DNA of 55,876 nt from Patescibacteria group bacterium (GCA_038063975.1 JBBTTY010000041.1:1-55876); one strand, 5' to 3'. Shown: positions 2,036-54,737, counted from the stretch's first letter. The notes: generated from the letters alone by a model not told the origin. Translations and numbers: made by a program.

Positions 2036-3163
2036 ATGAAAATTATTCTCACGGGCGGTGGCACGGGCGGGCATTTTTATCCGATAATTGCCGTAGCAGA
2101 ATCTATCAGAAGTATAACCAAAACAGAGAGGCTCATAGAGCCATCTCTCTACTACATGGGTCCAAAACAGTATGATGAAAAAGCCCTTTTTGAAAACGGC
2201 ATCATATTCGAAAGGTCGTATGCGGGCAAAATGAGGCGATACTTTTCCCTTCTAAATATTATAGACGCTGTAAAAACACTTATAGGCATCATAAACGCTA
2301 TCATAAGTGTCTGGAGAATATATCCGGATGTTGTTTTCAGCAAAGGGGGTTATGTCAGTTTTCCCGTGCTTTGTGCGGCGCGATTGCTACGCATCCCCGT
2401 TATTATCCATGAGTCTGATTCTCATCCAGGAAAAGTCAATTTATGGGCGGGTAAATTCGCTCTAAAAGTCGCTATTTCATATAAAGAAGCTGCCGCATAT
2501 TTTCCAGTTGGCAAAGTAGCTTTTACCGGCAATCCTGTGAGGCGCGAAGTGATGGAGCCGGCGCGGAATGGCGCGAGAGAATTTTTGAAAATCATTGATG
2601 ACTTGCCGGTCATTTTAATCCTCGGCGGCTCTCAAGGCTCGCAGAGGATAAATGAGAGCATCACAGGCATTTTGCCGGAGCTCGTCAAAAAATATCATGT
2701 TATACATCAGACAGGCAAGGAAAATATAGAAGAAATGATCCATACAGCCAATGTTATTTTGAATGAAAGCCAATATCATGATCGTTACAAGCCTTTTGCC
2801 TATCTCAACACTCTAGCAATGCGCATGGCGAGCGGTGCGGCTTCTCTCGTAATTTCTCGTGCCGGCTCGCAAATATTTGAAATCGCTCTCTGGGGTATTC
2901 CTTCCATTGTTATTCCTATTCCAGAAGAAATCAGTCACGACCAAACATCAAACGCTTTTGCTTATGCTGCATCGGGCGCTTGTTCTGTCATAGAAGAAAT
3001 AAATCTCACACCTCATATTCTGGCTTCCGAGATAGATCGCATCATAGGAAGTGCCGATATTCGGAAAAAAATGAAAGTTGGCGCTGGCCAGTTCGCCCAC
3101 CGAAATGCCGCAGATACTATTGCCAGGGAAGTCATACGGATTGCTCTGACACATGTAAAGTAA
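2036..3163 (+). CDS. murG: Undecaprenyl-PP-MurNAc-pentapeptide GlcNAc transferase MurG
   Basis: N-terminal GGTGGHFYP G-loop, GT28 length and layout, follows ftsW. Confidence 0.9.
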   Translation: MKIILTGGGTGGHFYPIIAVAESIRSITKTERLIEPSLYYMGPKQYDEKALFENGIIFERSYAGKMRRYFSLLNIIDAVKTLIGIINAIISVWRIYPDVVFSKGGYVSFPVLCAARLLRIPVIIHESDSHPGKVNLWAGKFALKVAISYKEAAAYFPVGKVAFTGNPVRREVMEPARNGAREFLKIIDDLPVILILGGSQGSQRINESITGILPELVKKYHVIHQTGKENIEEMIHTANVILNESQYHDRYKPFAYLNTLAMRMASGAASLVISRAGSQIFEIALWGIPSIVIPIPEEISHDQTSNAFAYAASGACSVIEEINLTPHILASEIDRIIGSADIRKKMKVGAGQFAHRNAADTIAREVIRIALTHVK

Positions 3164-3168
3164 AGTAT

Positions 3169-3198
3169 AAAAACACAGAATGTTGTATCTGTGTTTTT
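3169..3198 (+). terminator. Intrinsic terminator after murG
   Basis: AAAAACACAGA / TCTGTGTTTTT stem with 8-nt loop and T-run. Confidence 0.6.
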
Positions 3199-3225
3199 CA
3201 TTTCAAAAGAGGATATACTAGAGCC

Positions 3226-4641
3226 ATGCTTCGCCGTATAAAATACCTTTTCTCCAGGAGAAAGAAGGTGGTAACCAGGTTTCCTCCGAGTCCCACCGGT
3301 TTTTTACATATCGGGCGTGCTAGGACGGCTCTTTTCAATTATTTATATGCTCGAAAAAACCGAGGTTCTTTTATTTTTCGCATAGAAGACACGGACAAGA
3401 CCAGATCAAAAGATGAATACGAAAAAGACATCATTGAATCTCTAGAGTGGTTAGGTTTGTCATATGATAATCGTGAAATTTGGCATCAATCAGAGCGAAC
3501 CGAGGTTTATAGAAAATATTTGGAAAATCTGATAGGAGAGGGCAAAGCATATTTTTCAAAAGAAGAAAATCAAAAAGAAGGAGATAGGGCAGAGGTGATC
3601 AGGTTTAAAAATCCAAATATAAAAATAAAATTCACTGACATCATCCGCGGAGATGTCGAATTTAATACGACCGAGCTCGGTGATTTTGTCATCGCTCGGG
3701 ATGTCAATGATCCGGTGTATCACTTTACCGTGGTTGTCGATGATTTTTTGTCCGGAGTTACTCATGTCATTCGGGGAGAAGATGGCGTTTCAAATACCCC
3801 TAGACAGATTCTCATTCAAAAAGCTATCGGCGCGCCAGAACCCACATATGCGCATGTGCCGCTTATTTTGGCGGCTGATAAATCAAAACTTTCTGGTCGT
3901 CATGGTGCTGTTTCAGTTCGTCAGTTTAGAGAAAAAGGTTATTTGCCACAAGCATTGGTGAATTATTTGGCTCTGCTTGGATGGAATCCGGGAACAGCGC
4001 AGGAAATTTTTACTTTAGACGAACTCATTCTGGCTTTCGATCTCTCTAAAGTTCAAAAAGGCGGTGCTGTATTTGATGAGAAAAAACTGCGCTGGATAAA
4101 CAAAGAACATATAAAACGATTGCCGAAAAAAGATTTTGAAAAAGAATTGAAAAAACACATAGAATCATCGGAAAGGGTAAAGGATTTGGCATGGAAAGTT
4201 TCAAATGAAACGATAGAGAAAATCGCTCCTGTGATCATCGACAGAATAGAAGTGTATTCCGATATAGATAATATGATTACTGGGCGAGATCTGGATTTTT
4301 ATTTTTCCGAACCGCAGTATGATTGTTTATCTCTCAAATGGAAAGAAGAGCCAGACCTCTCTTCAACTCAAAACCATCTCAATTTTATACGATCAGAACT
4401 GGAAAAATTGCCGGAAAAAAGTTGGAATGAGGAGAATGTAAAAACTGTCGTTTGGCCGTACGCCGAAAATCAGGGCAGGGGAGAGGTTCTCTGGCCTTTC
4501 CGCTATGCCCTATCAGGCAAAGAAAAATCGCCAAACCCTTTTATTTTGGCTTCTATTTTAGGCAAGCAAACGACCTTAAAACGTATAGAAAAGGCGTTAA
4601 AATTATGTACTTCCGCTTGCGCCGATGCAAATATCTTATAG
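3226..4641 (+). CDS. gltX: Glutamate--tRNA ligase
   Basis: PSPTGFLHIGRART (HIGH) and KLSGR (KMSKS-like) motifs; ORF-track start 2980 overlaps murG and was replaced by ATG 3226. Confidence 0.9.
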   Translation: MLRRIKYLFSRRKKVVTRFPPSPTGFLHIGRARTALFNYLYARKNRGSFIFRIEDTDKTRSKDEYEKDIIESLEWLGLSYDNREIWHQSERTEVYRKYLENLIGEGKAYFSKEENQKEGDRAEVIRFKNPNIKIKFTDIIRGDVEFNTTELGDFVIARDVNDPVYHFTVVVDDFLSGVTHVIRGEDGVSNTPRQILIQKAIGAPEPTYAHVPLILAADKSKLSGRHGAVSVRQFREKGYLPQALVNYLALLGWNPGTAQEIFTLDELILAFDLSKVQKGGAVFDEKKLRWINKEHIKRLPKKDFEKELKKHIESSERVKDLAWKVSNETIEKIAPVIIDRIEVYSDIDNMITGRDLDFYFSEPQYDCLSLKWKEEPDLSSTQNHLNFIRSELEKLPEKSWNEENVKTVVWPYAENQGRGEVLWPFRYALSGKEKSPNPFILASILGKQTTLKRIEKALKLCTSACADANIL

Positions 4642-4668
4642 AAAAAATTTTGTATATTCTAAATAATG

Positions 4669-4763
4669 AAAAACATCAGATATAGTTTTGCGCTACTCGG
4701 GACGGGACCCTTGCCTAAGGGCAACCCCATCCCTCCGTTGCTCAAACTATATCTGATGTTTTT
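4669..4763 (+). repeat. Family-1 nested hairpin element, copy A (20-bp AT-rich stem + 55-nt GC-rich core)
   Basis: AAAAACATCAGATATAGTTT pairs with AAACTATATCTGATGTTTTT; core 4689-4743 is 54/55 identical to 36134-36188. Confidence 0.85.
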
Positions 4764-6003
4764 TTTATCACTTCTTTTTTTCACTCTCCCTGTTTTTGCC
4801 GAGTCTGTAGACGAATTGCGACAAAAAATTTCTGATAACAATAAAAAAATAGAAGATTTGCAAAATCAGATAGAACAGTACTCGACTCTACTCAATTCAA
4901 CTTCAAAAGAAGCTCAAACCCTCAAAAGCGCTCTGGCCACTCTCGAATTGACCCAGAAAAAATTGGAAGCCAGTCTGGCTTTGACCTCGACTCAAATATC
5001 AAAAACGAAACAGACTCTTACAGGTCTAAACGACGATATAAACGAGGCGGAAAAAAGTATAAATAAGGCTCTAGTGGTTATAGGCGAGAATATACGTATC
5101 ACCAATATGACAGAATCACAGTCGGTTGTAGAAGAACTGCTTGGCAACAAAAGCATCTCCGAAACTTGGAACTATGTGAACGCTCTCCATGCCATTCAGA
5201 GCAGGATAAAAATTGACCTAGAAAATTTGCGCGATTTGCGTTCGACTCTAGCCATAAAGATGGATCAGACCATAGGCGAAAAAACAAAATTGGAAACATA
5301 TCAAAAAAATCTCTCCGATCAGAAATCAGTGGTGGTCAATACCAAACAACAAAAAGACAAATTACTCAAAGACACCCAGAGCAAAGAATCAAATTACAAA
5401 ATCATTCTTACCGAAAAAATAAAACAAAAAGAAATTTTTGAAAAAGAACTTTTTGCCTATGAATCAAAACTGAAAATCGCCATTGATCCGTCAACTATAC
5501 CGAGCGCGAGAGCAGGGGTTCTATCATGGCCTCTCGATAAAGTCTTTATAACTCAATATTTCGGCAAATCATTTTCAGCCAAACGTCTTTACGTTTCTGG
5601 CACGCATAATGGCGTAGATTTTCGAGCTTCTATAGGCACCCCAATCAAAACAGCTCTCTCGGGTACGGTGACAGAGATGGAAGCCATTCGTGCCAAAAGT
5701 GGCTGTCAATATGGCAAATTTGTCCTCATAAAACACCCAAATGGTCTTTCTACCATATATGGCCACCTCTCTGTTGTATCCGTACAGCTTGGAGATACGG
5801 TCATAACGGGCGATACCATAGGTTATAGTGGCGATACGGGATACGCCACAGGCCCACATCTCCACTTTGGTTTATACATCACCCAAGGCATTCGCATAGT
5901 CGATTCGAGCTCTCTCGGCTCGTCACGCTGCACAGGTATAAAAACTGTCGCTGCGCCCCCAACTGCATATCTCGATCCGACGGCGTATTTGCCGAAGTTG
6001 TAA
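4756..6003 (+). CDS. M23 family metallopeptidase with N-terminal coiled coil (EnvC-like)
   Basis: HNGVDF and GPHLHFGLY LytM-type motifs; long coiled-coil region; signal peptide MFFLSLLFFTLPVFA begins at ATG 4756; ATG 4666 would translate the repeat element. Confidence 0.8.
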   Translation: MFFLSLLFFTLPVFAESVDELRQKISDNNKKIEDLQNQIEQYSTLLNSTSKEAQTLKSALATLELTQKKLEASLALTSTQISKTKQTLTGLNDDINEAEKSINKALVVIGENIRITNMTESQSVVEELLGNKSISETWNYVNALHAIQSRIKIDLENLRDLRSTLAIKMDQTIGEKTKLETYQKNLSDQKSVVVNTKQQKDKLLKDTQSKESNYKIILTEKIKQKEIFEKELFAYESKLKIAIDPSTIPSARAGVLSWPLDKVFITQYFGKSFSAKRLYVSGTHNGVDFRASIGTPIKTALSGTVTEMEAIRAKSGCQYGKFVLIKHPNGLSTIYGHLSVVSVQLGDTVITGDTIGYSGDTGYATGPHLHFGLYITQGIRIVDSSSLGSSRCTGIKTVAAPPTAYLDPTAYLPKL

Positions 6004-6372: not shown

Positions 6373-6463
6373 TAAGAAGCATATATTAACTATATTACCG
6401 AAAAGATATATTGTGCGACATAGATATAAACCAGCTTTTGATCCTTCCCCAATACATACAAAT

Positions 6464-6493
6464 ACAAAAAAACTACCTTCACTTGAAGGTAGT
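6464..6493 (-). terminator. Intrinsic terminator of the 6503-7393 gene
   Basis: ACTACCTTC/GAAGGTAGT stem, T-run on the minus strand (plus-strand A-run 6464-6472). Confidence 0.6.
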
Positions 6494-6502
6494 TTGAGGG
6501 TT

Positions 6503-7393
6503 TTACTTTGTTGGAGGAGAATTAAATTCGGAATCCAACAAACCAGCCCGAGCCAAAAGCAAAATGTACACATCCGCATGTGCCAGCCGACACATATCGT
6601 TGCTACGTCTGACATTATGATAGTAATCATATATCCACTCCCCTGCAGGCTTGAGAACGAGACCGTAGGAAAATACGACCCTGTGAAGAGTTTCAATTAC
6701 GGGAAATTTACCGAAATTATCCTTGTAATGTGCATTCCAACAGGCCGTGAGGAGTGCTTTGGGATTCGTAGAGAACAGAGAATCGAGGATTTTTGGCATG
6801 AACGCTTGTCTATGCAAACTCAATTGTTCAATCAACTTACATTCGAGATTTCCGTATGAGCTTGAACCATAACCTATCTCTTTTTGACAAGTCAGAAGAT
6901 AACAGAGTTTCTCGCAACCTTTTGCAAGTGCTGTTGCTGTATTCTTATCTGAAGGAGATTTACCGGGAGGGATATTAATAAAGCAGTAATCACCGTCGAT
7001 ACTGAAGAAACTAATCATCGTGGCACATAATTCTGGTTGTTCAATTATAAGTTTTGAGATCACCCGATTAAATTCCAGAGGTCCTGGACCAGAATAGATA
7101 TCAATCGAATTTTGTTTCTCGAAAAACTGATATGCCAGTATTCCCCGAGCGAGTTTATGGACTTTATCCGATTCGCCGTTTCCATAGATGGCTTTTCTGA
7201 TAAGAAAAATAAGCCGTTTGGCGTATTCTTTTGCGCACACTTCTGGACTAGATCTCCCGGCAATGAGCTCCCCAATATCTGGCAAGAGAGCGTGGAGAAG
7301 GCCCATTTTCTCCGCCAAAGTTATTTCCTCTACATGGTATCGTTCGCGCCATTTATCAAACATACCAATTTTACTGACATCGACGTCATTCAT
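6503..7393 (-). CDS. Hypothetical protein (296 aa), no recognised domain
   Basis: Long ORF with its own terminator; cytoplasmic-looking, Cys-rich, no motif I can name. Confidence 0.6.
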   Translation of the reverse strand: MNDVDVSKIGMFDKWRERYHVEEITLAEKMGLLHALLPDIGELIAGRSSPEVCAKEYAKRLIFLIRKAIYGNGESDKVHKLARGILAYQFFEKQNSIDIYSGPGPLEFNRVISKLIIEQPELCATMISFFSIDGDYCFINIPPGKSPSDKNTATALAKGCEKLCYLLTCQKEIGYGSSSYGNLECKLIEQLSLHRQAFMPKILDSLFSTNPKALLTACWNAHYKDNFGKFPVIETLHRVVFSYGLVLKPAGEWIYDYYHNVRRSNDMCRLAHADVYILLLARAGLLDSEFNSPPTK

Positions 7394-7498
7394 AGTTATA
7401 CCTCTTTTTTCTATTGTTTACCCAGGTAATTTTTTAGGGCGGTTGTGATGAACTAACCGTTTTAGATATTACTCTTCCACGTCATTTTTGTCTAATAA

Positions 7499-9310: not shown

Positions 9311-9431
9311 CTGCAATGTTGCTGAAATGCTTGCGAGCGGAGACTCTCGGAGCGCGGGCGCGAGAGTGAGCTGACGTGCCAGCAGGCACGTACAGCGTGC
9401 TCTGCGAGCAAGCATTCCAGCAACATTGTAG
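9311..9431 (+). repeat. Family-2 nested hairpin element, copy 1 (24-bp stem + three-way-junction core)
   Basis: CTGCAATGTTGCTGAAATGCTTGC pairs with GCAAGCATTCCAGCAACATTGTAG; core shares GGAGAC..TCGGAG..GAGAGTGAG..CAGCAG..CGTGCTC with 19571-19707 and 52321-52443. Confidence 0.85.
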
Positions 9432-13634: not shown

Positions 13635-13663
13635 AAAAATAGTGCTCCACAAGCACTATTTTT
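13635..13663 (+). terminator. Intrinsic terminator after dnaB
   Basis: AAAAATAGTGCT CCACA AGCACTATTTTT. Confidence 0.65.
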
Positions 13664-14601: not shown

Positions 14602-14704
14602 TAATATCTCCTTTTATCAAAATCCTAACACAATAATTTAAAAAATCAAAGTTTACGAAATCGATTATGTAAAATATGTAAAAAAACTATACCTGCCGTT
14701 TTTT

Positions 14705-15703
14705 TTACTTCTTCCTCTTCAAAACTTTCATGACGGCGGTTTTTATGTGAGAAGTTCCCATGCCGTAATGTTCTACGAGCTCCACTGGCGTGCCTGATTG
14801 GCCAAATTTGTCGCAGATGCCTATAAATTCAATCGGCACAGGTAAATTTGAGGCGAGCAATTCAGCAATTGCACTTCCCATACCTCCGGCAATCTGATGC
14901 TCTTCTACTGTGACGATGGCACCGGTAGATTTCGCCACTGCCAATATTATTTTCTCGTCGAGAGGTTTTATAGTAGATAGATTGACAACAGTCACACCGA
15001 CTTTTTCTTTTTCCAATTCTCTGGCGACCATGAGCGCTCGGTAAACGAGAGCTCCTGTGGCTATGATAGCGACGTCTGGTTTACCTGTAATCGGTTCAAA
15101 ATAGATTTGCGCCTTGCCTATTTCAAAAGGCGTATTTTCGGTCGTTATAACGGGCGTTTTGTCCCGAATAAGACGTATATATATAGGTGTTTTTGTCTTC
15201 GCGGCCTCAATAGTCGCCTTTTTAGCTTCAATGTGATCACAAGGAGAAATAACCGTCATATTTGGCAAGACGCGCATGAGAGCGATATCTTCAATCGCTT
15301 GGTGTGTGCCACCATCAGGACCCACAGAAACTCCGGCGTGAGAGCCTATAATTTTTACAGGCACATCATTGTATGCGATGGTCGTGCGTATCTGCTCCCA
15401 ATTTCGGCCCGGGGAAAACATGGCATAAGAAGAGACAAAAGGAATTTTGCCCATGGAAGCCATGCCGGAAGCGACGGTTACCAAATTTTGCTCCGCCACA
15501 CCGATTTCTACAAATCTCTTTGGAAATTTTTCGGCGAAAAGGTGCATTTGAGTGGACTCAGTCAAATCAGCGCAGAGCCCAACCATATTTGTGTCTTTTT
15601 CCCCTGCCTCAAGTAAGCCCTGGCCAAAACCTTTTCGAATTGGCACTTGTTCGACGTCTCTGTCGAATACTTTTGGATTTAATTTTTGGTTTTGGGAAAT
15701 CAT
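14705..15703 (-). CDS. Transketolase, C-terminal (pyrimidine-binding + C-terminal domain) subunit
   Basis: FVEIGVAEQNLV, typical Pyr/C-terminal halves of split transketolase, 332 aa. Confidence 0.88.
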   Translation of the reverse strand: MISQNQKLNPKVFDRDVEQVPIRKGFGQGLLEAGEKDTNMVGLCADLTESTQMHLFAEKFPKRFVEIGVAEQNLVTVASGMASMGKIPFVSSYAMFSPGRNWEQIRTTIAYNDVPVKIIGSHAGVSVGPDGGTHQAIEDIALMRVLPNMTVISPCDHIEAKKATIEAAKTKTPIYIRLIRDKTPVITTENTPFEIGKAQIYFEPITGKPDVAIIATGALVYRALMVARELEKEKVGVTVVNLSTIKPLDEKIILAVAKSTGAIVTVEEHQIAGGMGSAIAELLASNLPVPIEFIGICDKFGQSGTPVELVEHYGMGTSHIKTAVMKVLKRKK

Positions 15704-19538: not shown

Positions 19539-19558
19539 GTTTATGATTTATGTGATGA

Positions 19559-19567
19559 ATTATAGCA
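19559..19567 (-). promoter_or_regulatory. Extended -10 element (TGCTATAAT) upstream of gap
   Basis: Reverse complement of ATTATAGCA, 21 nt upstream of the gap ATG; no clear -35. Confidence 0.4.
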
Positions 19568-19570
19568 TTG

Positions 19571-19707
19571 TAAGCAGAAAAGAAAGCGAAAAGAAGTCTG
19601 TGAGTGGAGACTCTCGGAGCACGACGGTGCGAGAGTGAGCTGCTCCGTCAGCAGACGGAGACAGCGTGCTCCACGAGCAGACTTCTTTTCGCTTTCTTTT
19701 CTGCTTA
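19571..19707 (+). repeat. Family-2 nested hairpin element, copy 2 (perfect 30-bp stem + three-way-junction core)
   Basis: TAAGCAGAAAAGAAAGCGAAAAGAAGTCTG pairs perfectly with CAGACTTCTTTTCGCTTTCTTTTCTGCTTA; conserved core 19601-19677. Confidence 0.88.
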
Positions 19708-19749
19708 TTTCTCCCCATATATTCCACAGCTTATCAACATTATTAAACC

Positions 19750-19777
19750 TTGATAGACGTTTTAAAATGAGTATAAT
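19750..19777 (+). promoter_or_regulatory. Sigma70-like promoter of the MerR-like gene
   Basis: TTGATA, 16-nt spacer, TATAAT; 25 nt upstream of ATG 19802. Confidence 0.55.
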
Positions 19778-19801
19778 TTATAACTATATAAATCAAGCTT
19801 T

Positions 19802-20050
19802 ATGGCAGTCTCATTTATGATGATAAAAGATGCAGCGAAGTATTTGGGGGTCTCTCCTCTCACTTTACGTAATTGGGATAAGCAAGGAAAGCTCCCAGCT
19901 ACCCGTCATCCCATGTCAAACTACCGAATTTACAAAATAGAGCATATAGAAAAACTTCTTAAAGACATAGAAGCTGGAATCATTCCCACAAAAGCAAAAC
20001 CGCGTAAAGTTTTGAAAAGAAAACTCACAGTAAAAAGTGTTATAGACTAA
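19802..20050 (+). CDS. MerR/excisionase-family HTH DNA-binding protein (82 aa)
   Basis: IKDAAKYLGVSPLTLRNWDKQGKLPATRHPMSNYRIY matches the MerR/Xis-type winged HTH. Confidence 0.7.
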   Translation: MAVSFMMIKDAAKYLGVSPLTLRNWDKQGKLPATRHPMSNYRIYKIEHIEKLLKDIEAGIIPTKAKPRKVLKRKLTVKSVID

Positions 20051-20084
20051 AGCTATCTCGGTTATCTCGGATACACGAGATAGT

Positions 20085-20187
20085 AAAAAAAGTGGCAGAT
20101 ATAAGTTCTCATTGCTCGGGAGGGGACCCTTGCCTAAGGGCAATCCCTCTCCCTCGCAGCCTCGAACTTATATCTGCCACTTTTTTT
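20085..20187 (+). repeat. Family-1 nested hairpin element, copy B
   Basis: AAAAAAAGTGGCAGATATAAGTTC ... GAACTTATATCTGCCACTTTTTTT around the 55-nt core 20109-20163. Confidence 0.85.
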
Positions 20188-20192
20188 ACCAT

Positions 20193-20555
20193 CTATGAAA
20201 TCGATGTAATCGCTACTTTAAAATACGGCTGACGATGGCCTTGTTTTTTAAAATATTTGCTTTTTGGCTTGTAATGGACGACGGTTACCTTTGGATCGCG
20301 ACCAATTTCCTTTATTTCGCCCTCCACCTTTGAATTGCTCACAAATGGAGTTCCCACTACAGTTTGACTGGCATTATCCACTAAGAGAACTTTATCAAAT
20401 GTAATCTTACCGCCTATAACGTGATTTCCGATGATTTTTTCTATTTTTATGATATTTCCCACACTTACTTTATATTGCTTGCCTCCGGTCATTATAACAG
20501 CAAAAGCACTAGTTCCAATTACCTTTTGCGTCTTTTTTGTTTTATCTGTAGCCAT
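20193..20555 (-). CDS. rplU: 50S ribosomal protein L21
   Basis: FAVIMTGGKQYKVSVGNII core; 120 aa with short N-terminal extension. Confidence 0.88.
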   Translation of the reverse strand: MATDKTKKTQKVIGTSAFAVIMTGGKQYKVSVGNIIKIEKIIGNHVIGGKITFDKVLLVDNASQTVVGTPFVSNSKVEGEIKEIGRDPKVTVVHYKPKSKYFKKQGHRQPYFKVAITSIS

Positions 20556-24879: not shown

Positions 24880-24897
24880 TCAGTTTTACCTTTCATT

Positions 24898-28448: not shown

Positions 28449-28494
28449 TAAAAGTGGCAGGTATAAGTTCGAGAACTTATACCTGCCACTTTTT
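28449..28494. terminator. Bidirectional terminator hairpin, empty-site paralog of family-1 stems
   Basis: AAAAGTGGCAGGTATAAGTTC GA GAACTTATACCTGCCACTTTT; stem differs from 20092-20108 by one compensated pair. Confidence 0.8.
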
Positions 28495-28497
28495 TGA

Positions 28498-30453: not shown

Positions 30454-30573
30454 AAATGGGAATTATTTGTTATGTGGCCTAGTATATCACAGATTTCTAT
30501 AATTACAAAAATTGCAAAGTTTTTCCACCGAAAAACTTCCGTACTCCACACAAACACGTCCTCTGCTTTTATT

Positions 30574-36074: not shown

Positions 36075-36102
36075 AAAACACGTCCACAAGACGTGTTTTT
36101 TT
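36075..36102 (+). terminator. Intrinsic terminator
   Basis: AACACGTC CACAA GACGTGTT followed by TTTTT. Confidence 0.7.
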
Positions 36103-36107
36103 ACTGA

Positions 36108-36214
36108 AAAACAAAAATAGCAGATATAAGTCTTGCGCTACTCGGGACGGGACCCTTGCCTAAGGGCAACCCCGTCCCTCCGTTGCTCAGACTTATATCT
36201 GCTATTTTTGTTTT
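36108..36214 (+). repeat. Family-1 nested hairpin element, copy C
   Basis: 26-bp stem AAAACAAAAATAGCAGATATAAGTCT / AGACTTATATCTGCTATTTTTGTTTT around the 55-nt core 36134-36188. Confidence 0.88.
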
Positions 36215-36216
36215 CT

Positions 36217-37281
36217 TTAAAACAATTTCACCACATCCCTATAAGTCACAAAAAGCATAAAGAGAATGAGCAAACCAAAGCCTATGGCGTTTATGGTATT
36301 GGCTATTTTTGGAGAAATCATTTTTCTACGCACGGCTTCAATACCAACAAAAAGAATACGTCCGCCATCGAGAGCCGGAAAAGGAATGAGGTTTAGAACG
36401 GCTAAGTTAAGAGATATGAATGCTGTGAATGACAATAGATAGACAAAACCGAGTCTGCCTGCGTCACCTACCAGCCGAGCGATGCCTATGGGACCGGAAA
36501 TTTGAGAGATATCTCCCTGTCCTATGATAGCGTTATAAATGAGCATATAGATTCCGACAACTATATTTTTAGACATATAGACGGTCAGTTTCGCCCCTTC
36601 CCAGAAAGCGATATGAATGGGTAATTTTACTTTACCCACCATATCCATAGATATGCCCACGGCATATCTGTCTCCTAAAACTCCTTTTTCCGGAATGATC
36701 ACAATATCTTTTATATCCGCCAAGTGTTGTATTTGAAATGTCACAGGCCGACCGTCTGAATTTTTGATTACGTCTTGAACAGCGGATACTGTCGAAAAAG
36801 AAAGTATTTCATCTCCAGAAACCAATCCTGCTTTTTCGGCAGGAGAATTGGGCAATGTATCGACGATGATGACATGACTATCTGTAATATATTTCGAATT
36901 ATTTTCTGAAACGCCTGTTGTCATACCTGACATGAAAGCTATTCCAAATAAAAGCCAAGCAAACAAAATATTCATGACGATACCGGCAGCTAAAATGACA
37001 ACTTGTTTCCATCGAGATTTGTGAATAAAGCTACGTGAACTATCAGGTCCGGAAATAGACTGATCATCCGGACTCTCGCCAAATATTTTGACGAATCCAC
37101 CGAAAGGAATGACGTTTATGGAATATACGGTCTCTCCCTTTTTCCAACTCCAAATTTTTGGCGGAAAGCCGAGGCCAAATTCATCTACCCGCACACCACA
37201 TTTTTTGGCGGCGTAAAAATGGCCGAATTCATGGACGAGAATCAAAACCGCCAAAACAATTAAAAATAAAATAATAGTCAC
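36217..37281 (-). CDS. rseP: Site-2 (M50) RIP metalloprotease RseP
   Basis: HEFGHF zinc motif, PDZ domain (PAEKAGLVSGDEIL), C-terminal NLIPFPALDGG. Confidence 0.9.
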   Translation of the reverse strand: MTIILFLIVLAVLILVHEFGHFYAAKKCGVRVDEFGLGFPPKIWSWKKGETVYSINVIPFGGFVKIFGESPDDQSISGPDSSRSFIHKSRWKQVVILAAGIVMNILFAWLLFGIAFMSGMTTGVSENNSKYITDSHVIIVDTLPNSPAEKAGLVSGDEILSFSTVSAVQDVIKNSDGRPVTFQIQHLADIKDIVIIPEKGVLGDRYAVGISMDMVGKVKLPIHIAFWEGAKLTVYMSKNIVVGIYMLIYNAIIGQGDISQISGPIGIARLVGDAGRLGFVYLLSFTAFISLNLAVLNLIPFPALDGGRILFVGIEAVRRKMISPKIANTINAIGFGLLILFMLFVTYRDVVKLF

Positions 37282-39707: not shown

Positions 39708-41243
39708 ATGTCAAAACAAACTGGACAAAAAGCCTTGATTTCCATAGGAGCGATGATCGCTCGATTGCGCGAAGACAGGCGCATGACCCAAGCTAGTCTC
39801 GGTAAAAAAATTAGTACGACCCAGAGCGTCATCGCCCGTATAGAAAAAGGTGAGCAGAATCTGTCTACCGAAACTTTGGCTAAACTTTCAAAAGCACTCA
39901 ATCACGAGATCGTAACCATATCAAAAGGTGGCACGGTTAATTTTCGCATTCATGGCAATCATAAACTCTCTGGCACGATCAAAGTTCGTACCTCAAAGAA
40001 TGGCGCGGTCGGAGTGATGTGCGCTTCCCTGCTCAATAGAGGAACGACTGTCATAAAAAATATTCCAAAAATAGAAGAAGTAAATCGTATGATTGAAGTT
40101 TTTGAATCAATCGGCGTAAAAGCCGAATGGAGAAATCTCGACCTCCACATCACTCCGCCAGAAAAATTTGCCATGAAAAATATAACTTATGATTCCGCAG
40201 CCAGAACCCGAACGGTCATTATGATGATAGGTTCTCTGATTCATCGCCTAAATGTATTTGATTTGCCGCAAATCGGCGGTTGTAAACTAGGCTCACGGAC
40301 CATAAAACCTTATTTCTACGCTCTGGAAAAACTTGGAATAAAGATAGAAACGAGCTCGAGATTTTATAAAATTTCACATAATGGCCTAAAAAGAAATCGT
40401 GAAATTATCATGTATGAAGCTGGAGACACGGTAACTGAAACGCTTCTCATGGCGGTCGCGCTCATACCTGGTAAAACCGTTATCAAATTCGCTTCGGCAA
40501 ATTATCAAGTACAGGATGTATGTTTTTATCTCGAATCACTCGGTGTAAAGATCGATGGTGTGGGCACTTCTGTCATGACCGTGCATGGTATCCCAGGTCC
40601 CATAAAAAAAGATGTTCGGTATTTTCTCTCCGAAGACCCTATAGAAGCCATGTCTCTCTTGACAGTCGCTATCGTTACGAAGTCTTCTATTACTATAGAG
40701 CGGTGTCCTATCGATTTTCTCGAACTCGAACTTTTGAAACTAGAAAAAATGGGTTTCAGATATAAAATTTTGAAGAGATATAAAGCCGAGAATGGCAAAA
40801 CAAATCTCGTTGACATAAAAACTTTTTTGGGGAAACTCCACGCTCTGGACGAAAAAATTCATGCCCTGCCCTATCCAGGCATAAATATGGACAATCTCCC
40901 GTTTTTTGCAATCATCGGTACGCAAGCGGAGGGAGAAACATTCATTCATGATTGGGTTTATGAGAAACGCGCTATATATTACAAAGAACTCGACAAATTG
41001 GGTGCTGAAACAATCCTCGCAGATCCTCATCGGTTTTATGTCAAAGGTCCGACAAAACTGAAAGCCACTGAAATCCTCTGTCCTCCCGCTCTGCGACCTT
41101 CTGTCATTATCATGATAGGCATGCTGGCCGCTGAAGGAACTTCTATATTACGCAATGTATATAATATAAATCGTGGATACGAAGATTTGGCTCACCGATT
41201 GAACTCTCTAGGTGCAAAGATTGAGGTCTTTAGGGATTTGTAG
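39708..41243 (+). CDS. murA: XRE-type HTH domain fused to UDP-GlcNAc 1-carboxyvinyltransferase (MurA)
   Basis: aa ~10-70 MTQASLGKKISTTQSVIARIEKGEQNLSTETLAKL (HTH_XRE); remainder aligns to MurA incl. TSKNGAV (Lys22 site) and GGCKLGSR (catalytic Cys loop). Confidence 0.8.
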   Translation: MSKQTGQKALISIGAMIARLREDRRMTQASLGKKISTTQSVIARIEKGEQNLSTETLAKLSKALNHEIVTISKGGTVNFRIHGNHKLSGTIKVRTSKNGAVGVMCASLLNRGTTVIKNIPKIEEVNRMIEVFESIGVKAEWRNLDLHITPPEKFAMKNITYDSAARTRTVIMMIGSLIHRLNVFDLPQIGGCKLGSRTIKPYFYALEKLGIKIETSSRFYKISHNGLKRNREIIMYEAGDTVTETLLMAVALIPGKTVIKFASANYQVQDVCFYLESLGVKIDGVGTSVMTVHGIPGPIKKDVRYFLSEDPIEAMSLLTVAIVTKSSITIERCPIDFLELELLKLEKMGFRYKILKRYKAENGKTNLVDIKTFLGKLHALDEKIHALPYPGINMDNLPFFAIIGTQAEGETFIHDWVYEKRAIYYKELDKLGAETILADPHRFYVKGPTKLKATEILCPPALRPSVIIMIGMLAAEGTSILRNVYNINRGYEDLAHRLNSLGAKIEVFRDL

Positions 41244-41255
41244 GATACTTTAATC

Positions 41256-43139
41256 ATGTATCTCATAAAAGCCATTCCTATCGCTCGCGGCATAGGTTTA
41301 GACACTCTCTCGTATTGGAGCTCTAAAAATGTAGTTTCGGGATCAATCATCCGAGTACCTCTACGTAAACGCAAAATAGGAGCCATCGTTATATCCTGTG
41401 AATCAGCTCTAGAAAGCAAATCTGAAATCAGAGGAGCAGATTTTTCTGTTAAAAAAATCACCGATACTCACGCACGCTCGATCATCTTTCCCCAATTCTT
41501 TAAAACCGCCGAACAAATGGCGCGTTATTATGCTTGCTCGGTTGGCAGTATTCTCTTTGAACTCTTGCCTAGTGCAATACTTTCTCAATATGAAAAACTG
41601 TCCCAAGCCAAAGAAATTATAAAAAGAGAAAGGCCGCGCGAATCTTTTGTTCTTCAAAAAAACGACGAAGATCGTTTTGCCCACTACAAGAGTCTTATCC
41701 GCGAGAAATTTGCCCGTAAAGAGTCTGTTTTTATGGTCATGCCTTCGGTGGAAGATATAAAAAAAGCCTGTTCATATTTTGAAAAAGGTATAGAACCCTA
41801 TACATACATAATTCACGGAGCACTTTCAAAAAATGAAATTATAAAACGATGGAAAGCCATAATGGAAGACAAACATCCTATAATCATTGTCGCTACGGGA
41901 TTATTTCTATCTATTCCTCGCGGAGATATAGGTATTATAATCATTGAACGAGAAAACTCCAGAAACTACAAAATTCAGTCGAGACCATATCTCGACTTTC
42001 GCCATATGGCGGAACATTTTGCCAGAGAAATAGGGGCGGATTTCATCGCTGGTGATTCATGTCTACGTATTGAAACTCTGTATCGGGAAACAGAAGGTGA
42101 TTTAGTTCAATATGCCCCTCTGTCTATGCGTTCCCTGTCTACGGCCCGAGATTCTCTTATGGATATGAAAGTCTATAAAAATGTCGAACATAAAATACGT
42201 ATACTTTCAGATGACTTGAAAGCTCTGGCAAATAAAAATCGCACGGAAAACGGCCTGCTGTTTATTTTTGCTGGCAGACGGGGTCTGGCTCCTCAGACGA
42301 TATGCGCCGATTGTGAAACTACTCTAGTCTGCGACTTATGCTCTTCTCCTTTGGTTCTCTACGGCAAAGATGGGTCAAAATTTTTTCTTTGCAATAAATG
42401 TGGCAAAAAGTTTGGCCCTGATCAAATATGCGAACAATGCGGCGGTTGGAGGCTTATTACTCTGGGTATAGGCACGGAAAAAATAGAAGAAGAGTTGAAG
42501 AAAATCATTCCGGAAGCAAAAATATGGCGACTGGACAAAATTTCCGCCCCATCCCACAAAAAAGCTATTGATATGGTAGAAAAGTGGTACGCTTCTCCTG
42601 GTAGTATTTTGATTGGTACGGAATTAGCCCTGCTCTATTTGGATAAACCGATTGATTACAGTGCCGTGGCTTCTTTAGATGCTCTCTTTTCCATTCCAGA
42701 CTTTCGCATAAATGAAAAAATATTTTCTATTATTTTAAAAATGCGCTCAATCACTCAAAAGCAATTTCTGCTCCAGACGAGAGTGCCTCTCATGGCAGTG
42801 CTCGGCTGGAGCGTCAAAGGTAATATCATTGATTTCTACCGCGATGAAATCGAAAGTCGGAGAAAATTTTCTTTTCCGCCATTTTCTACGTTTATAAAAA
42901 TTTCGTCCACCGGCAAAAAGCAAGATGTCCTAGACGCTATGGAAAAGCTCAAAGTGATTCTAGTTGGCTATGTCATAGACGTCTTTCCCGCTTTTATAGC
43001 CACGATCAAGGGCAATTATATCATGCATGCTTTGATAAAGCTCCAAAGTGGAGAATGGATAAATCAGGAATTATTGAATCGTTTGCGCAGTCTTCCGCCT
43101 AATTATGCAATAAATGTGGATCCTGAATCCATACTATAG
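41256..43139 (+). CDS. priA: Primosomal protein N' (PriA)-like, helicase ATPase motifs degenerate
   Basis: N-terminal 3' DNA-binding-like domain, Cys-rich Zn region CADC..CDLC..CNKC..CEQC; Walker A position reads QKNDEDRF and DExH position reads IERENS. Confidence 0.7.
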   Translation: MYLIKAIPIARGIGLDTLSYWSSKNVVSGSIIRVPLRKRKIGAIVISCESALESKSEIRGADFSVKKITDTHARSIIFPQFFKTAEQMARYYACSVGSILFELLPSAILSQYEKLSQAKEIIKRERPRESFVLQKNDEDRFAHYKSLIREKFARKESVFMVMPSVEDIKKACSYFEKGIEPYTYIIHGALSKNEIIKRWKAIMEDKHPIIIVATGLFLSIPRGDIGIIIIERENSRNYKIQSRPYLDFRHMAEHFAREIGADFIAGDSCLRIETLYRETEGDLVQYAPLSMRSLSTARDSLMDMKVYKNVEHKIRILSDDLKALANKNRTENGLLFIFAGRRGLAPQTICADCETTLVCDLCSSPLVLYGKDGSKFFLCNKCGKKFGPDQICEQCGGWRLITLGIGTEKIEEELKKIIPEAKIWRLDKISAPSHKKAIDMVEKWYASPGSILIGTELALLYLDKPIDYSAVASLDALFSIPDFRINEKIFSIILKMRSITQKQFLLQTRVPLMAVLGWSVKGNIIDFYRDEIESRRKFSFPPFSTFIKISSTGKKQDVLDAMEKLKVILVGYVIDVFPAFIATIKGNYIMHALIKLQSGEWINQELLNRLRSLPPNYAINVDPESIL

Positions 43140-47745: not shown

Positions 47746-48312
47746 ATGAAAAATTATGCTAGCCGGACACATTCGGAAATGCTAGATGTGCTCATGGATG
47801 CTAAATCTCCAGGGCCTGAAATTTACTATTATATGGTTCGTGGTGGCAAGGAAAAGACAAACATTACAATTCTGGAACCAGGCATAATTGGTGACGAGTA
47901 TATAAAAACATACGGTCACTATCATGTAGGAAAACTAGACGAGACTTATACAATTCTTCAAGGAAAAGGTGTGATCGTCATGCAAACGAGAAAAATTGAT
48001 GAAAAAGGAAAACCGCTAGACGAAGAAATTGAAACTTTTAGAGCGATTAGCGTAAAAACTGGAGATAGGGTTTTCATTCCGAGCGGAGCGGGTCATTTGG
48101 CCATAAATACCGGCGAAACATGGTTCGTTACTTCAGACGACAGTCCGGTCAATTTTCTAGAAAAAGATCCTATCAGTTTACCTGGACACGCCGATTACGG
48201 CCCCTTCAAACGACTCCACGGCGCTGCCTATTATGTCATCAAAAAAAATAACGAACCTACTCTCGTGAAAAATCCTCTTTATAAAGTAATTCCTAAAGCA
48301 AAAATAGAATAA
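47746..48312 (+). CDS. Cupin-type glucose-6-phosphate isomerase (archaeal cPGI-like)
   Basis: 188 aa, TYGHYH and PSGAGHLAINTG cupin metal-site motifs as in Pyrococcus-type PGI. Confidence 0.65.
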   Translation: MKNYASRTHSEMLDVLMDAKSPGPEIYYYMVRGGKEKTNITILEPGIIGDEYIKTYGHYHVGKLDETYTILQGKGVIVMQTRKIDEKGKPLDEEIETFRAISVKTGDRVFIPSGAGHLAINTGETWFVTSDDSPVNFLEKDPISLPGHADYGPFKRLHGAAYYVIKKNNEPTLVKNPLYKVIPKAKIE

Positions 48313-48426
48313 AAAATACAAGTACAAGCTAATCGAGAACCTCCGCAGGGAAGGATTTGTCATAGGTCTGTCCTTGACAAATCCGACCCGAGGACTGTTC
48401 GAGAGTAGTTTGTACTTGTATTTTTT
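48311..48426. repeat. Long nested hairpin (21-bp AT-rich stem, GC-richer branched core), singleton
   Basis: AAAAAATACAAGTACAAGCTA pairs with TAGTTTGTACTTGTATTTTTT; inner 10-bp hairpin GGATTTGTCA/TGACAAATCC. Confidence 0.8.
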
Positions 48427-48429
48427 ATA

Positions 48430-51619: not shown

Positions 51620-52324
51620 ATGACATTCGAAAAACAAATCATGGAAAAAATAAGAGGGAGACGGCTCCGGCCGATGCCAAAGGGTTATTTCTATGTGCGC
51701 GACGTCGTTGTCTGGCTTCTGCTCGGTGTATTTGTGACGGCTCTGTCTCTCGGTTTTGCTATGACTATGTTTATGATTCGCGGCACAGACTTTGGGCTTT
51801 TTGAAAAGCTCGGCTTGTCGAGTGGTCAGAAAATAATTTATTCCATTCCATTTTTTTGGATTGCTACATGCATCGCCTTGGCTTTAGCTGTCTTTATCAA
51901 TTTTCGAAATACTCGCAGGGGTTATCGCATGAGCACGAAACAATTTTCTCTGATAACTGTGCTCATTGCTCTGGCTTTCGGCAGTGTTTTGTACTCTCTC
52001 GATATCGCTAAATATGTAGACAAGACCGCTTCGAAAAACTTTCCTTTGTACAATTCTGTCGTGCCACTCAATATAAATAATTGGCTCGATCCAGAGCACG
52101 GTCTGCTCTCTGGCGCTGTGCGGGACAGGGAATCAGAATCTGATTTCATGCTCCGAGACGCAAATGGTATCTTGTGGCATGTAACGGGCAGAAATATTGA
52201 AGTGGAAAAAGGTTTCAAATGGGCTAGTGGTGATAGAATCAAAATTATAGGCGTACAGTCCGGACTTGATGAATTCCGCGCTATAGAAATATTGCCGTGG
52301 GAGGAGAAACCTACAAAGGAATAA
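51620..52324 (+). CDS. Polytopic membrane protein, possible non-canonical anti-sigma partner
   Basis: 16 nt downstream of the ECF sigma gene; 3-4 TM helices; no HxxxCxxC zinc anti-sigma motif. Confidence 0.4.
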   Translation: MTFEKQIMEKIRGRRLRPMPKGYFYVRDVVVWLLLGVFVTALSLGFAMTMFMIRGTDFGLFEKLGLSSGQKIIYSIPFFWIATCIALALAVFINFRNTRRGYRMSTKQFSLITVLIALAFGSVLYSLDIAKYVDKTASKNFPLYNSVVPLNINNWLDPEHGLLSGAVRDRESESDFMLRDANGILWHVTGRNIEVEKGFKWASGDRIKIIGVQSGLDEFRAIEILPWEEKPTKE

Positions 52325-52443
52325 AATCGCAAGAATAGTTGCTTGAGGAGACCTTCGGAGGACGCGAAGGCGTCCGAGAATGAGACGCCCCGCCAGCAGG
52401 CGGGGATGTCGTGCTCCGAAAGTAACTATTCTTGCGATTTTAT
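52321..52443 (+). repeat. Family-2 nested hairpin element, copy 3 (divergent)
   Basis: ATAAAATCGCAAGAATAGTT pairs with AACTATTCTTGCGATTTTAT; overlaps the stop codons of both convergent flanking genes. Confidence 0.85.
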
Positions 52444-52817
52444 TCTTTTATAGTAATCATCACACGAATGTCTAAATTCATGCGGTCGTAAAAAGAATAT
52501 GTGCCCGGACCGAAAAAAGAAAGAGTGTAACTCTCGCCCGTTCCGAATTCTCCCGATTCCAGCCTAGCATCACGCTTTGATGATCTCTCTTCGGCGATAG
52601 TGTGCCGACTTTCGTCTAGAACCATAAAAACTATCTCATCGCCTGGTCGGGCCGTAACGGAAATCGGTTCCGCCCTGTCCTCAAAGAGAAGGATTTTATG
52701 GATGGTACCTCCGCCAAAGAAAACAGAAGCGGTATTATCTCCTTCTCGACCTAACCTTTTTGTGAGAGCAAAAGTTCCCGCCAGAGCGAGCAGAAGAAAA
52801 AACCAAATTAAAACCAT
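52440..52817 (-). CDS. Secreted/membrane-anchored cupredoxin-like protein lacking Cu ligands
   Basis: Signal anchor MVLIWFFLLLALAG; PGDEIVFMVLDESRHT beta-sandwich-like pattern, no Cys; start trimmed to ATG 52817. Confidence 0.35.
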   Translation of the reverse strand: MVLIWFFLLLALAGTFALTKRLGREGDNTASVFFGGGTIHKILLFEDRAEPISVTARPGDEIVFMVLDESRHTIAEERSSKRDARLESGEFGTGESYTLSFFGPGTYSFYDRMNLDIRVMITIKE

Positions 52818-54705: not shown

Positions 54706-54737
54706 AAAAACTCAGAGCATTACTGGTCTGAGTTTTT
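54706..54737 (-). terminator. Symmetric terminator overlapping the MazF-like stop codon
   Basis: AAAAACTCAGA / TCTGAGTTTTT stem with 10-nt loop. Confidence 0.6.

Follow-up and report, generated by a model that had tools for sequence, protein, structure and literature searches.

A candidate family of modular, terminator-like palindromic repeats in groundwater Saccharibacteria

Three long hairpins behind housekeeping genes

The DNA analysed here, referred to as the window, is a stretch of 55,876 nucleotides (nt) from a groundwater Saccharibacteria genome (Patescibacteria group bacterium, GCA_038063975.1 JBBTTY010000041.1:1-55876), and the element in question is a long hairpin, named family 1, of which the window carries three copies on the + strand. 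Copy A (type 1; 4669-4763) is located between gltX, which ends at 4641, and an M23 peptidase gene; copy B (type 2; 20085-20187) between the convergent merR-like gene (19802-20050, + strand) and rplU (20193-20555, - strand); and copy C (type 1; 36108-36214) lies 3 nt past the stop codon of rseP (36217-37281, - strand). The positions and the layout are as described in an earlier note on this DNA: at all three loci, an A-run is followed by an AT-rich stem with CAGATATA(A)GT in it, a GC-rich core of 55 nt, the complementary stem and a T-run. Of 55 positions, a single one distinguishes the core of copy A from that of copy C, and 45 of 57 aligned columns are alike between them and the core of copy B (about 79%, where the note had estimated roughly three-quarters). 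The window contains exactly three occurrences of the 17-nt apex of the core, CCCTTGCCTAAGGGCAA, all of them on the + strand, against 0.08 expected from shuffled sequences, and no further site at up to three mismatches; the motif of the outer stem, or shell, CAGRTATARNT, is found 11 times against 0.38 expected. The predicted fold of each copy is one long hairpin with an energy of -44 to -65 kcal/mol, which corresponds to z-scores of -9.5 to -12.7 relative to shuffles.

The complete element of copy B consists of concentric layers, all given here for the + strand. The A-run (20085-20091) pairs with the T-run (20181-20187) and constitutes the U-run for transcripts of the - strand; the T-run ends 5 nt from the rplU stop codon. 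The left shell arm GTGGCAGATATAAGTTC (20092-20108) and the right shell arm GAACTTATATCTGCCAC (20164-20180) form helix 1, in which 14 of 18 pairs covary across the family. The core (20109-20163) is composed of a mid stem, TTGC/GCAG (20112-20115 with 20156-20159), a TC/TC mismatch loop (20116-20117 with 20154-20155), a clamp, GGGAGGGG/CCCTCTCCC (20118-20125 with 20145-20153), and the 17-nt apex (20127-20143), for which TTGCC-TAAG-GGCAA is the best-supported fold. The clamp is the 8-bp helix proposed in the earlier note. It is indeed present, with a C.A mismatch in copy A (CCCATCCC); the changed pair of copy B, said to be kept via G-T, may be such a pair or a bulged T, as the right arm has 9 nt. 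The flanks of 9-10 nt, previously regarded as unpaired, form the covarying mid stem.

Assemblies made independently from this population (0.1 µm fraction of Hainich groundwater metagenomes) also contain copy B and a coreless hairpin (28449-28496), thus copy B is not an assembly artefact. An explanation by chance similarity or faulty assembly also conflicts with counts far above the shuffled expectation and with homologous copies in unique flanks in four other assemblies or metagenome-assembled genomes (MAGs), and can be treated as already refuted. What speaks for it is a 625-nt Hainich contig (L004), a chimera that joins copy A's left half to the right half of copy B within the apex common to both; it indicates that the repeat can break or mis-join short-read assemblies.

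At every resolved locus, a count that leaves out one copy near a contig end (L012), the element starts 0-36 nt past a stop codon. At least six loci are situated between convergent genes and the remainder are mostly co-directional. The flanking genes are ordinary housekeeping genes: gltX, M23 peptidase, rplU, a MerR-type regulator, rseP, proS, lysS and mraZ. The only copy found inside an operon is a family 1-like element of contig L089 (6008-6111), with a GC-rich 27-bp shell and without A- or T-runs, placed between the pbp stop and the murE start of the dcw cluster; the gap between these genes in the window is 18 nt (24880-24897).

The anatomy is that of an intrinsic terminator: a stable stem-loop followed by a T-run, an upstream A-run for two-way action, and a position past stop codons or between convergent genes, as the terminator-like label of the earlier note had it. 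Transcription from either side would yield a hairpin within the above energy range (-44 to -65 kcal/mol), then a U-run. From the stop-adjacent position and from a hairpin with a U-run in both directions we infer the role of a bidirectional terminator; wherever the runs are present, intrinsic termination in both directions, together with protection of 3' ends by the hairpin, is the most likely function of the element. Ordinary terminators of these genomes use the same A-run/stem/T-run form (e.g., 13635-13663, 36077-36104 and 54706-54737). The whole stem of family 1, about 40 bp, is far longer than that of a typical intrinsic terminator.

The right arm of copy A contains an in-frame ATG (4756-4758), and the listed M23 peptidase open reading frame (ORF; 4666-6003) reads through the copy. 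Judging by the alignment with the orthologue of a related MAG (CAZVHT), this ATG is the probable true start of the peptidase and the upstream part an over-extension; in that case, the signal peptide would owe its first phenylalanines to the T-run of copy A. An internal promoter in the shell was considered and rejected, as neither its TATAAG nor its TACAAA ends with the T of a -10 box. Right after several elements, 6-7 nt before the next ATG, there is a -10-like box, TATAAT or TGgTACAAT (L009 ~1493-1520, L010 ~3095-3130 and L007 1643-1690), which points to mRNAs that begin directly behind the terminator with a very short leader or none. In L007, the inserted element is accompanied by a 10-nt direct repeat, TTGATACTTT.

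Relatives and layered anatomy of the family

The cross-genome search for the core, proposed in the earlier note, revealed further copies in relatives. Scanning species-representative genomes with a core 20-mer gave 10 matches in three MAGs: an uncultured Candidatus Saccharibacteria bacterium (CAZVHT01), "bacterium E14 bin148" (JAUSGU01) and Patescibacteria H32-bin108 (JBBTTH01). A 17-mer scan of metagenomes gave 69 matches, four of them real and two of these new. The family is therefore rare and restricted to one clade. The related contigs hold 14 more copies with the same or a near-identical apex and 4 with other apexes, the latter found by position-based and hairpin-based searches independent of the apex sequence. 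Parts of the window have syntenic counterparts on CAZVHT and E14 contigs, with about 70-80% of nucleotides identical, and the lysS proteins (lysine-tRNA ligase) of these two MAGs are 87% and 90% identical to that of the window. A search for strain-level pairs of empty and filled sites by exact-protein look-ups gave same-population contigs only.

The element could not be assigned to any known family, as the earlier note had supposed. Rfam 15, applied to the whole window at the gathering threshold, returned two tRNAs only, and 19540-20200, scanned permissively, yielded at best a plant miRNA hairpin (25.7 bits against a threshold of 96 bits). A full-text search of the Saccharibacteria and Patescibacteria literature found no description of such repeats. 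A phage or plasmid origin was rejected, since BLASTN of copy C gave no match and scans of viral contigs only one chance match. The element is also non-coding, in line with the earlier reading: the ORFs that cross the copies differ in frame and strand.

A structure alignment of 17 copies (types 1-3) supports one hairpin of 34 pairs, with standard pairing in 97.8% of the pair cells, whereas slid registers pair at about 50%. Changes on both sides have occurred at 21 of the 34 pairs, a number reached by none of 500 shuffles. The elements are about 95-107 nt long and share the following parts, from the base to the tip; (i) an A-run of 4-7 and a T-run of 5-8, present in all 17 copies; (ii) the AT-rich shell of about 17-22 bp (helix 1), with the pattern G-YRG-CAGRTAYA...; (iii) one or two 2x2 internal loops with TC on both arms, appearing as tandem G.A on the opposite strand; (iv) a covarying mid stem of 4-7 bp, which in type 1 is GCGCTAC/GTTGC or GCGTTGC/GCTAC, a double compensatory swap, and in type 2 TTGC/GCAG, TCGC/GCGA or TCGT/ACGA; (v) the clamp, an 8-bp G/C helix of the form GGGACGGG/CCCGTCCC, GGGAGGGG/CCCTCTCCC with a bulged T, or GGGGCGGG/CCCTTCCCC; (vi) an asymmetric loop, ACCC facing C or T; (vii) the apical hairpin TTGCC-TAAG-GGCAA.

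The 17-nt apex had been called invariant and the core exactly 55 nt long; both statements hold for a subfamily, and related copies have other apexes. Type 3, with the apex/core ACGCCTARGGGCGC, is represented by L006 4230-4327 and L009 4253-4348, type 4 (CTCGGAACGGGAGCCCTCGGGACAGACCCGTACC) by L086 9723-9822 and L087 11467-11564, type 5 by L089 6008-6111, and type 6 by L091 2016-2125. The TC-flanked G/C clamp is common to all six types, and the ACCC bulge occurs in types 1-3 and 6 only. The proposal of two mutually exclusive apex hairpins finds no support in the comparison with type 3 (ACGCC..GGCGC), in which one TTGCC/GGCAA pair is kept by a change from T-A to C-G and two CCCTT/AAGGG pairs are broken without compensation; a role as an RNA switch is not demonstrated. 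A G-quadruplex was likewise dismissed, as each strand has only three G-runs.

Turnover, mosaicism and the nature of the element

Orthologous sites of the window and its relatives are occupied differently. At the gltX/M23 site, where the window has copy A, CAZVHT (L014) is empty, with 13 nt instead. Conversely, between the genes 39708-41243 and 41256-43139 the window has a 12-nt gap and E14 a family 1 element (the L007 copy). The site behind rseP holds copy C and a simple terminator in the window, the simple terminator only in CAZVHT, an element of the unrelated family 2 together with the simple terminator in E14, and a family 1 relative of the same orientation with a different apex in H32-bin108. 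The simple terminator in question, AAAACACGTCCACAAGACGTGTTTTTTT (36077-36104), is an ordinary bidirectional one beside copy C, and its preservation in relatives without the element indicates that copy C is an addition. The rplU/merR site of copy B is taken by family 2 in E14. Behind lysS, the window has the coreless shell, CAZVHT and E14 have type 4, and a contig of H43 (L089) has a family 3 core. A family 1 copy of CAZVHT (L014 7297-7396) stands exactly where the window has the simple terminator 6465-6495, and the two have no stem sequence in common. The long-hairpin elements therefore turn over at fixed 3'-end sites.

The unit that is gained and the unit that is exchanged have to be distinguished. 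Copy A and the L007 copy share an identical 79-nt block (CAG to CTG) at non-orthologous loci of different species, the syntenic regions of which are about 72% identical, and L006 and L013, from one MAG, share an identical block of 81 nt. Both blocks span shell and core, which indicates that the shell travels with the core. At the same time, the layers are mosaic. At the lysS site, found by position, the type 4 cores of E14 and CAZVHT are identical at 34 of 34 positions, and the shell and mid stem diverge, resembling type 1 in one of the two and type 2 in the other. A different apex on a similar shell, mid stem and clamp is seen at the rseP site. Copies B and C have the shell CAGATATAAGT in common, with a core of type 2 in the former and of type 1 in the latter. 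These patterns show that shell, clamp and apex reassort between copies, probably through recombination or template switching between them.

Such exchange of cores recalls the nested insert of the earlier note, in which the GC-rich core of about 51-55 nt is itself mobile and enters the loop of pre-existing AT-rich terminator hairpins. Besides the shared shell of copies B and C and the single core type on two shells behind lysS, it draws on the coreless shell itself, AAAAGTGGCAGGTATAAGTTC-GA-GAACTTATACCTGCCACTTTTTT (28449-28496; 36 bits), which lies directly past the lysS stop codon; its stem equals the shell of copy B save for one compensated base pair. TC...TC encloses the type 2 and 3 cores, and the sequence of the empty loop on the lysS sense strand is TTC-TC-GAA, which would fit a 2-nt duplication, and unrelated cores sit on similar shells, as at 48309-48428. 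However, a 2-nt repeat is too short to serve as evidence, and deletion between the TC(G) repeats bracketing type 2 and 3 cores would leave exactly TTC-TC-GAA. Because the lysS site is filled in three relatives, loss is likelier than a target that was never filled, so the coreless shell is most simply explained by such a deletion of its core. Shell and core are jointly identical over the 79-81 nt at unrelated loci, and the empty orthologous sites show the whole hairpin, shell and A/T-runs included, as the gained unit. Insertion into the loops of ordinary terminators was also rejected: the one beside copy C (36077-36104) is intact and that at 6465-6495 is unrelated in stem to the L014 element. 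Hence the modularity claimed by the earlier note is upheld, the core as an independent unit is not, and its separate mobility appears unlikely.

The TC strand (CTC-GGG...CCC-TC) is mRNA-sense at 7-9 of the 8-10 independent co-directional loci. The opposite, GA strand, in which the mismatches become tandem G.A and sporadic A.C become G.U, is predicted to be more stable in all 17 copies of types 1-3, by -1.2 to -14.9 kcal/mol; for type 4 in L086 the order is reversed. Two further guides to the strand were discarded: sporadic A.C pairs are commoner on the TC strand (about 12 against 4), a count that is too small and includes many pairs shared by descent, and the GC skew of the TC strand has an inconsistent sign (13 positive, 8 negative). 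A conserved asymmetric mismatch within a palindrome suggests that one strand is read single-stranded, as RNA or as DNA.

If the RNA were read, the core could be a host-functional, cis-acting motif of 3' untranslated or intercistronic regions (for protein binding, processing or stability) kept by purifying selection, with the shell presenting it. The mRNA-sense bias of the TC strand favours this, as does the persistence of mismatched and unpaired nucleotides (the TC/TC loops of all types and the ACCC bulge) in stems that otherwise covary. Identity of 34 nt at the lysS site while the shell diverged would have a chance of about 0.8^34 = 5e-4 at 20% divergence, and the copy within the dcw operon lacks the A/T-runs. 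Against it, the element differs in presence between relatives and swaps with unrelated families at the same sites, its neighbours are inconsistent, assorted housekeeping genes, and the apex is wholly different between types, even at one orthologous site. Convergent contexts place the opposite strand beside the closest stop codon, the GA strand is the one predicted to fold better, and no Rfam family is matched. A host RNA function as the basis of the family is therefore considered doubtful.

If DNA were read, the element could resemble the REP/RAYT or IS200/IS605 PATE systems, in which the core hairpin would be recognised by an HUH/Y1 transposase encoded elsewhere and the folded strand cut and joined during replication. 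The asymmetric tandem mismatch and bulge, the orientation bias relative to the flanking genes, and the lack of an observed target duplication, as expected for such systems, agree with this, and some copies start with GTAG, the REP tag. However, GTAG is present in only about 5 of 17 copies, at a position that is simply YRG. The gene tables and Pfam scans that were examined contain no Y1 or HUH gene. The element is one symmetric hairpin without distinct left and right ends, no conserved tetranucleotide or other junction motif appears at the three empty/filled sites, as would be required of a PATE, and the GC skew of the TC strand is inconsistent as stated above. Mobility of this type is improbable.

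The explanation that we favour, and hold to be probable, is a new modular palindromic repeat family of the SPRITE or MITE (miniature inverted-repeat transposable element) kind, serving as bidirectional terminator in a clade of groundwater Saccharibacteria. The pattern of its spread is observed directly in the site comparisons, and the mechanism behind it would be that of a MITE- or SPRITE-type repeat.

Several observations weigh against it. The number of copies, about 21, is small, and some of them were gathered with the apex sequence as the query. The two members of each near-identical pair (copy A and L007, L006 and L013) differ only at the 2-5 basal stem pairs by the runs, with changes complementary on both arms; simple transposition followed by drift does not explain this pattern, which could have arisen through central gene-conversion tracts or a template switch inside the palindrome. 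The three comparisons of filled with empty sites, between genomes only 70-80% identical, show no direct target duplication. Termination is deduced from anatomy only. The next co-directional gene starts just 9-36 nt downstream, or inside the right arm in the case of copy A, so an efficient terminator would need a promoter overlapping the element. Moreover, a plain terminator would require neither conserved tandem mismatches, nor a type-specific invariant apex, nor a core that stays constant while the shell diverges. Finally, no transposase occurs among the ORFs and gene calls examined, which cover part of about 280 kb of related sequence.

The same holds for a parent insertion sequence (IS): none was found in the window, in Pfam/NCBIfam scans of about 25 window ORFs, or in the gene tables of six contigs, the whole genomes not having been searched. 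The flanks of the elements are inverted complements and not direct repeats. Target-site duplications, including TA and palindromic dinucleotides, were looked for and rejected; the flanks of copy B, for example, hold no palindromic dinucleotide.

Family 1 is not the only long hairpin of these genomes. Family 2 has three copies in the window (9311-9431, 19571-19707 and 52311-52453) and further ones in L086 (18416-18546, 1911-2029 and 18917-19037), L091 (7679-7799), L013 (4589-4707) and L014 (3863-3975). Its GC-rich core of about 80 nt is a three-way junction nested in a long AT-rich stem, with the closing helix GUGGAGAC/GUGCUCCAC and two variable hairpins, one of which has a CAGCAG or UAGCAAG loop. 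Among nine copies, 36 of 48 pairs covary, and Rfam gives no match for this family. It also varies in presence, the L014 site 3863-3975 being filled where the window has about 25 nt (3176-3200). Family 3, situated between convergent genes (48309-48428; 29 bits), is a long hairpin that has an A-run on one side and a T-run on the other; the AT-rich shell (ACAAGTACAA..) resembles that of family 1, and the core, ...CTCGAACAGTCCTCGGGTCGGATTTGTCA...TGACAAATCC...CTGCGGAGGTTCTCGA, is unrelated; a homologous core occurs at the lysS site of L089 (2131-2272). A fourth long composite hairpin, with the core ...GGGCACGACGGTGCCC...GGAAAATTTTTTGCTAAAAATTTTCC..., occurs in L086 (7592-7710) and L043 (3148-3272), between pbp and greA in E14, and the orthologous spot of the window has only a degenerate family 2-like remnant (~30500-30560).

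One shell arm with a T-run and without a partner arm (AACTATACCTGCCG; 14683-14708), at the 3' end of a transketolase-family gene (14705-15703, - strand), looks like a decayed half-element. The window also encodes a 296-residue ORF (6503-7393, - strand) without a Pfam/NCBIfam match, absent from the syntenic CAZVHT contig and bracketed by the hairpins 6470-6495 and 7433-7466. The intergenic stretch tattaccgaaaagatatattgtgcgacatagata (6385-6435 in the window, 7222-7255 in L014) is near-identical across both species, and the adjacent non-coding DNA has diverged.

Taken together, families 1-3 could conceivably represent a new class of self-propagating "terminator cassette", an idea in which we place little confidence. 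A folded single strand, DNA or RNA, would be recognised via the GC-rich core and would home to gene 3' ends or to resident cassettes without transposition of the terminal-repeat and target-duplication type; the cassettes would compete, replace one another and recombine at fixed sites of the streamlined Patescibacteria genomes. Recognition might rely on the type-specific apex and on the G/C clamp with the conserved tandem T.C (or G.A) mismatches on either side of it.

Patescibacteria (Candidate Phyla Radiation) have small genomes, in which repeats and mobile DNA are usually said to be scarce. In the genomes studied here, members of at least three long-hairpin families, spaced at about one per 10-20 kb, appear to provide the terminators of housekeeping genes or to take their place, with turnover from species to species. 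Should this be confirmed, they would offer a natural set of bidirectional terminators for new Saccharibacteria genetic systems, a case in which one can trace, site by site, how mobile or recombining cassettes shape 3'-end signals over evolution, and a defined motif (the clamp with tandem mismatches) for seeking a protein that binds or moves the element. For annotation, they are a warning that ORFs such as 4666-6003 may be over-extended through these elements.

Comparison with known repeats

Mitochondrial GC clusters and hairpin elements (of yeast, and of sponges, PMC2800124) are also short GC-rich palindromes in AT-rich intergenic DNA, seemingly mobile and without a known enzyme. In contrast to family 1, they are organellar and not terminator-shaped, and there is no evidence of homology.

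Paired uptake sequences are alike in placing a conserved sequence, as inverted pairs, in terminators past genes. The DUS of Neisseria and the USS of Pasteurellaceae are 10-12 nt long, occur about once per kb, and form terminator stems after genes as inverted pairs. Family 1 differs in its frequency of about one per 19 kb and in that its conserved part is the tip and not the stem, and an interpretation as DNA uptake sequence was rejected for these two reasons.

The REP, BIME and REPIN sequences with their RAYT transposases (Nunvar 2010; Bertels & Rainey 2011, PMC3337134; Di Nocera 2013, PMC3733652) are GC-rich, imperfect palindromes of 20-40 nt, intergenic and located after genes; they show compensatory evolution, REPINs form long hairpins, and roles in termination and mRNA stabilisation are known. 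However, the arms of family 1 are not palindromic REPs, and an AT-rich shell with A/T-runs is not a REP feature. The GTAG/CGTC tag of REPs is not conserved: the copies without GTAG have GTGG, GCGG, ATAG, ACAG, CAT, etc. No RAYT or Y1_Tnp gene is present in the gene tables seen, with no whole-genome search made.

Correia/NEMIS, ERIC and other bacterial MITEs (PMC3184786, PMC10969869) are non-coding, multi-copy elements of about 100-150 nt whose terminal inverted repeats fold into long RNA hairpins; their presence varies between strains, and they affect termination, processing and stability of neighbouring mRNAs (PMC10969869). Like MITEs, family 1 is short, non-coding, multi-copy, bounded by terminal inverted repeats and polymorphic in insertion. 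Such duplications (TA for Correia) and parent IS families are features of the known elements and neither was found for family 1. The BOX elements of pneumococcus (boxA-boxB-boxC) are comparable in modularity, as their outer pairing is unaffected by whether the inner module is there, missing or exchanged, and they likewise form a long stem-loop when transcribed. In contrast to BOX, with defined terminal inverted repeats, target duplications and a tandemly repeatable boxB, the layers of family 1 are concentric in one hairpin.

The closest described analogue appears to be SPRITE of Streptococcus pneumoniae, which has AAAA/TTTT ends, an over-long stem and a U-rich tail and occurs in about 30 copies (PMC3049150). 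Family 1 and SPRITE are both small interspersed repeats, AT-rich and with AAAA...TTTT termini, whose stem far exceeds that of normal terminators and whose tail is rich in T; both lie near gene 3' ends with enrichment between convergent genes, in tens of copies per genome, without an identifiable target duplication or a matching IS, and for both a co-option as terminator is proposed. The likeness refers to the published description of SPRITE, sequence homology being unlikely given the phylum and the GC-rich core. In contrast to SPRITE, family 1 resides in Patescibacteria, is symmetric and hence potentially bidirectional, and bears at the tip of its stem a GC-rich, covarying, multi-layer core with tandem mismatches and type-specific apexes. 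Family 1 is thus a new family of a known kind of repeat.

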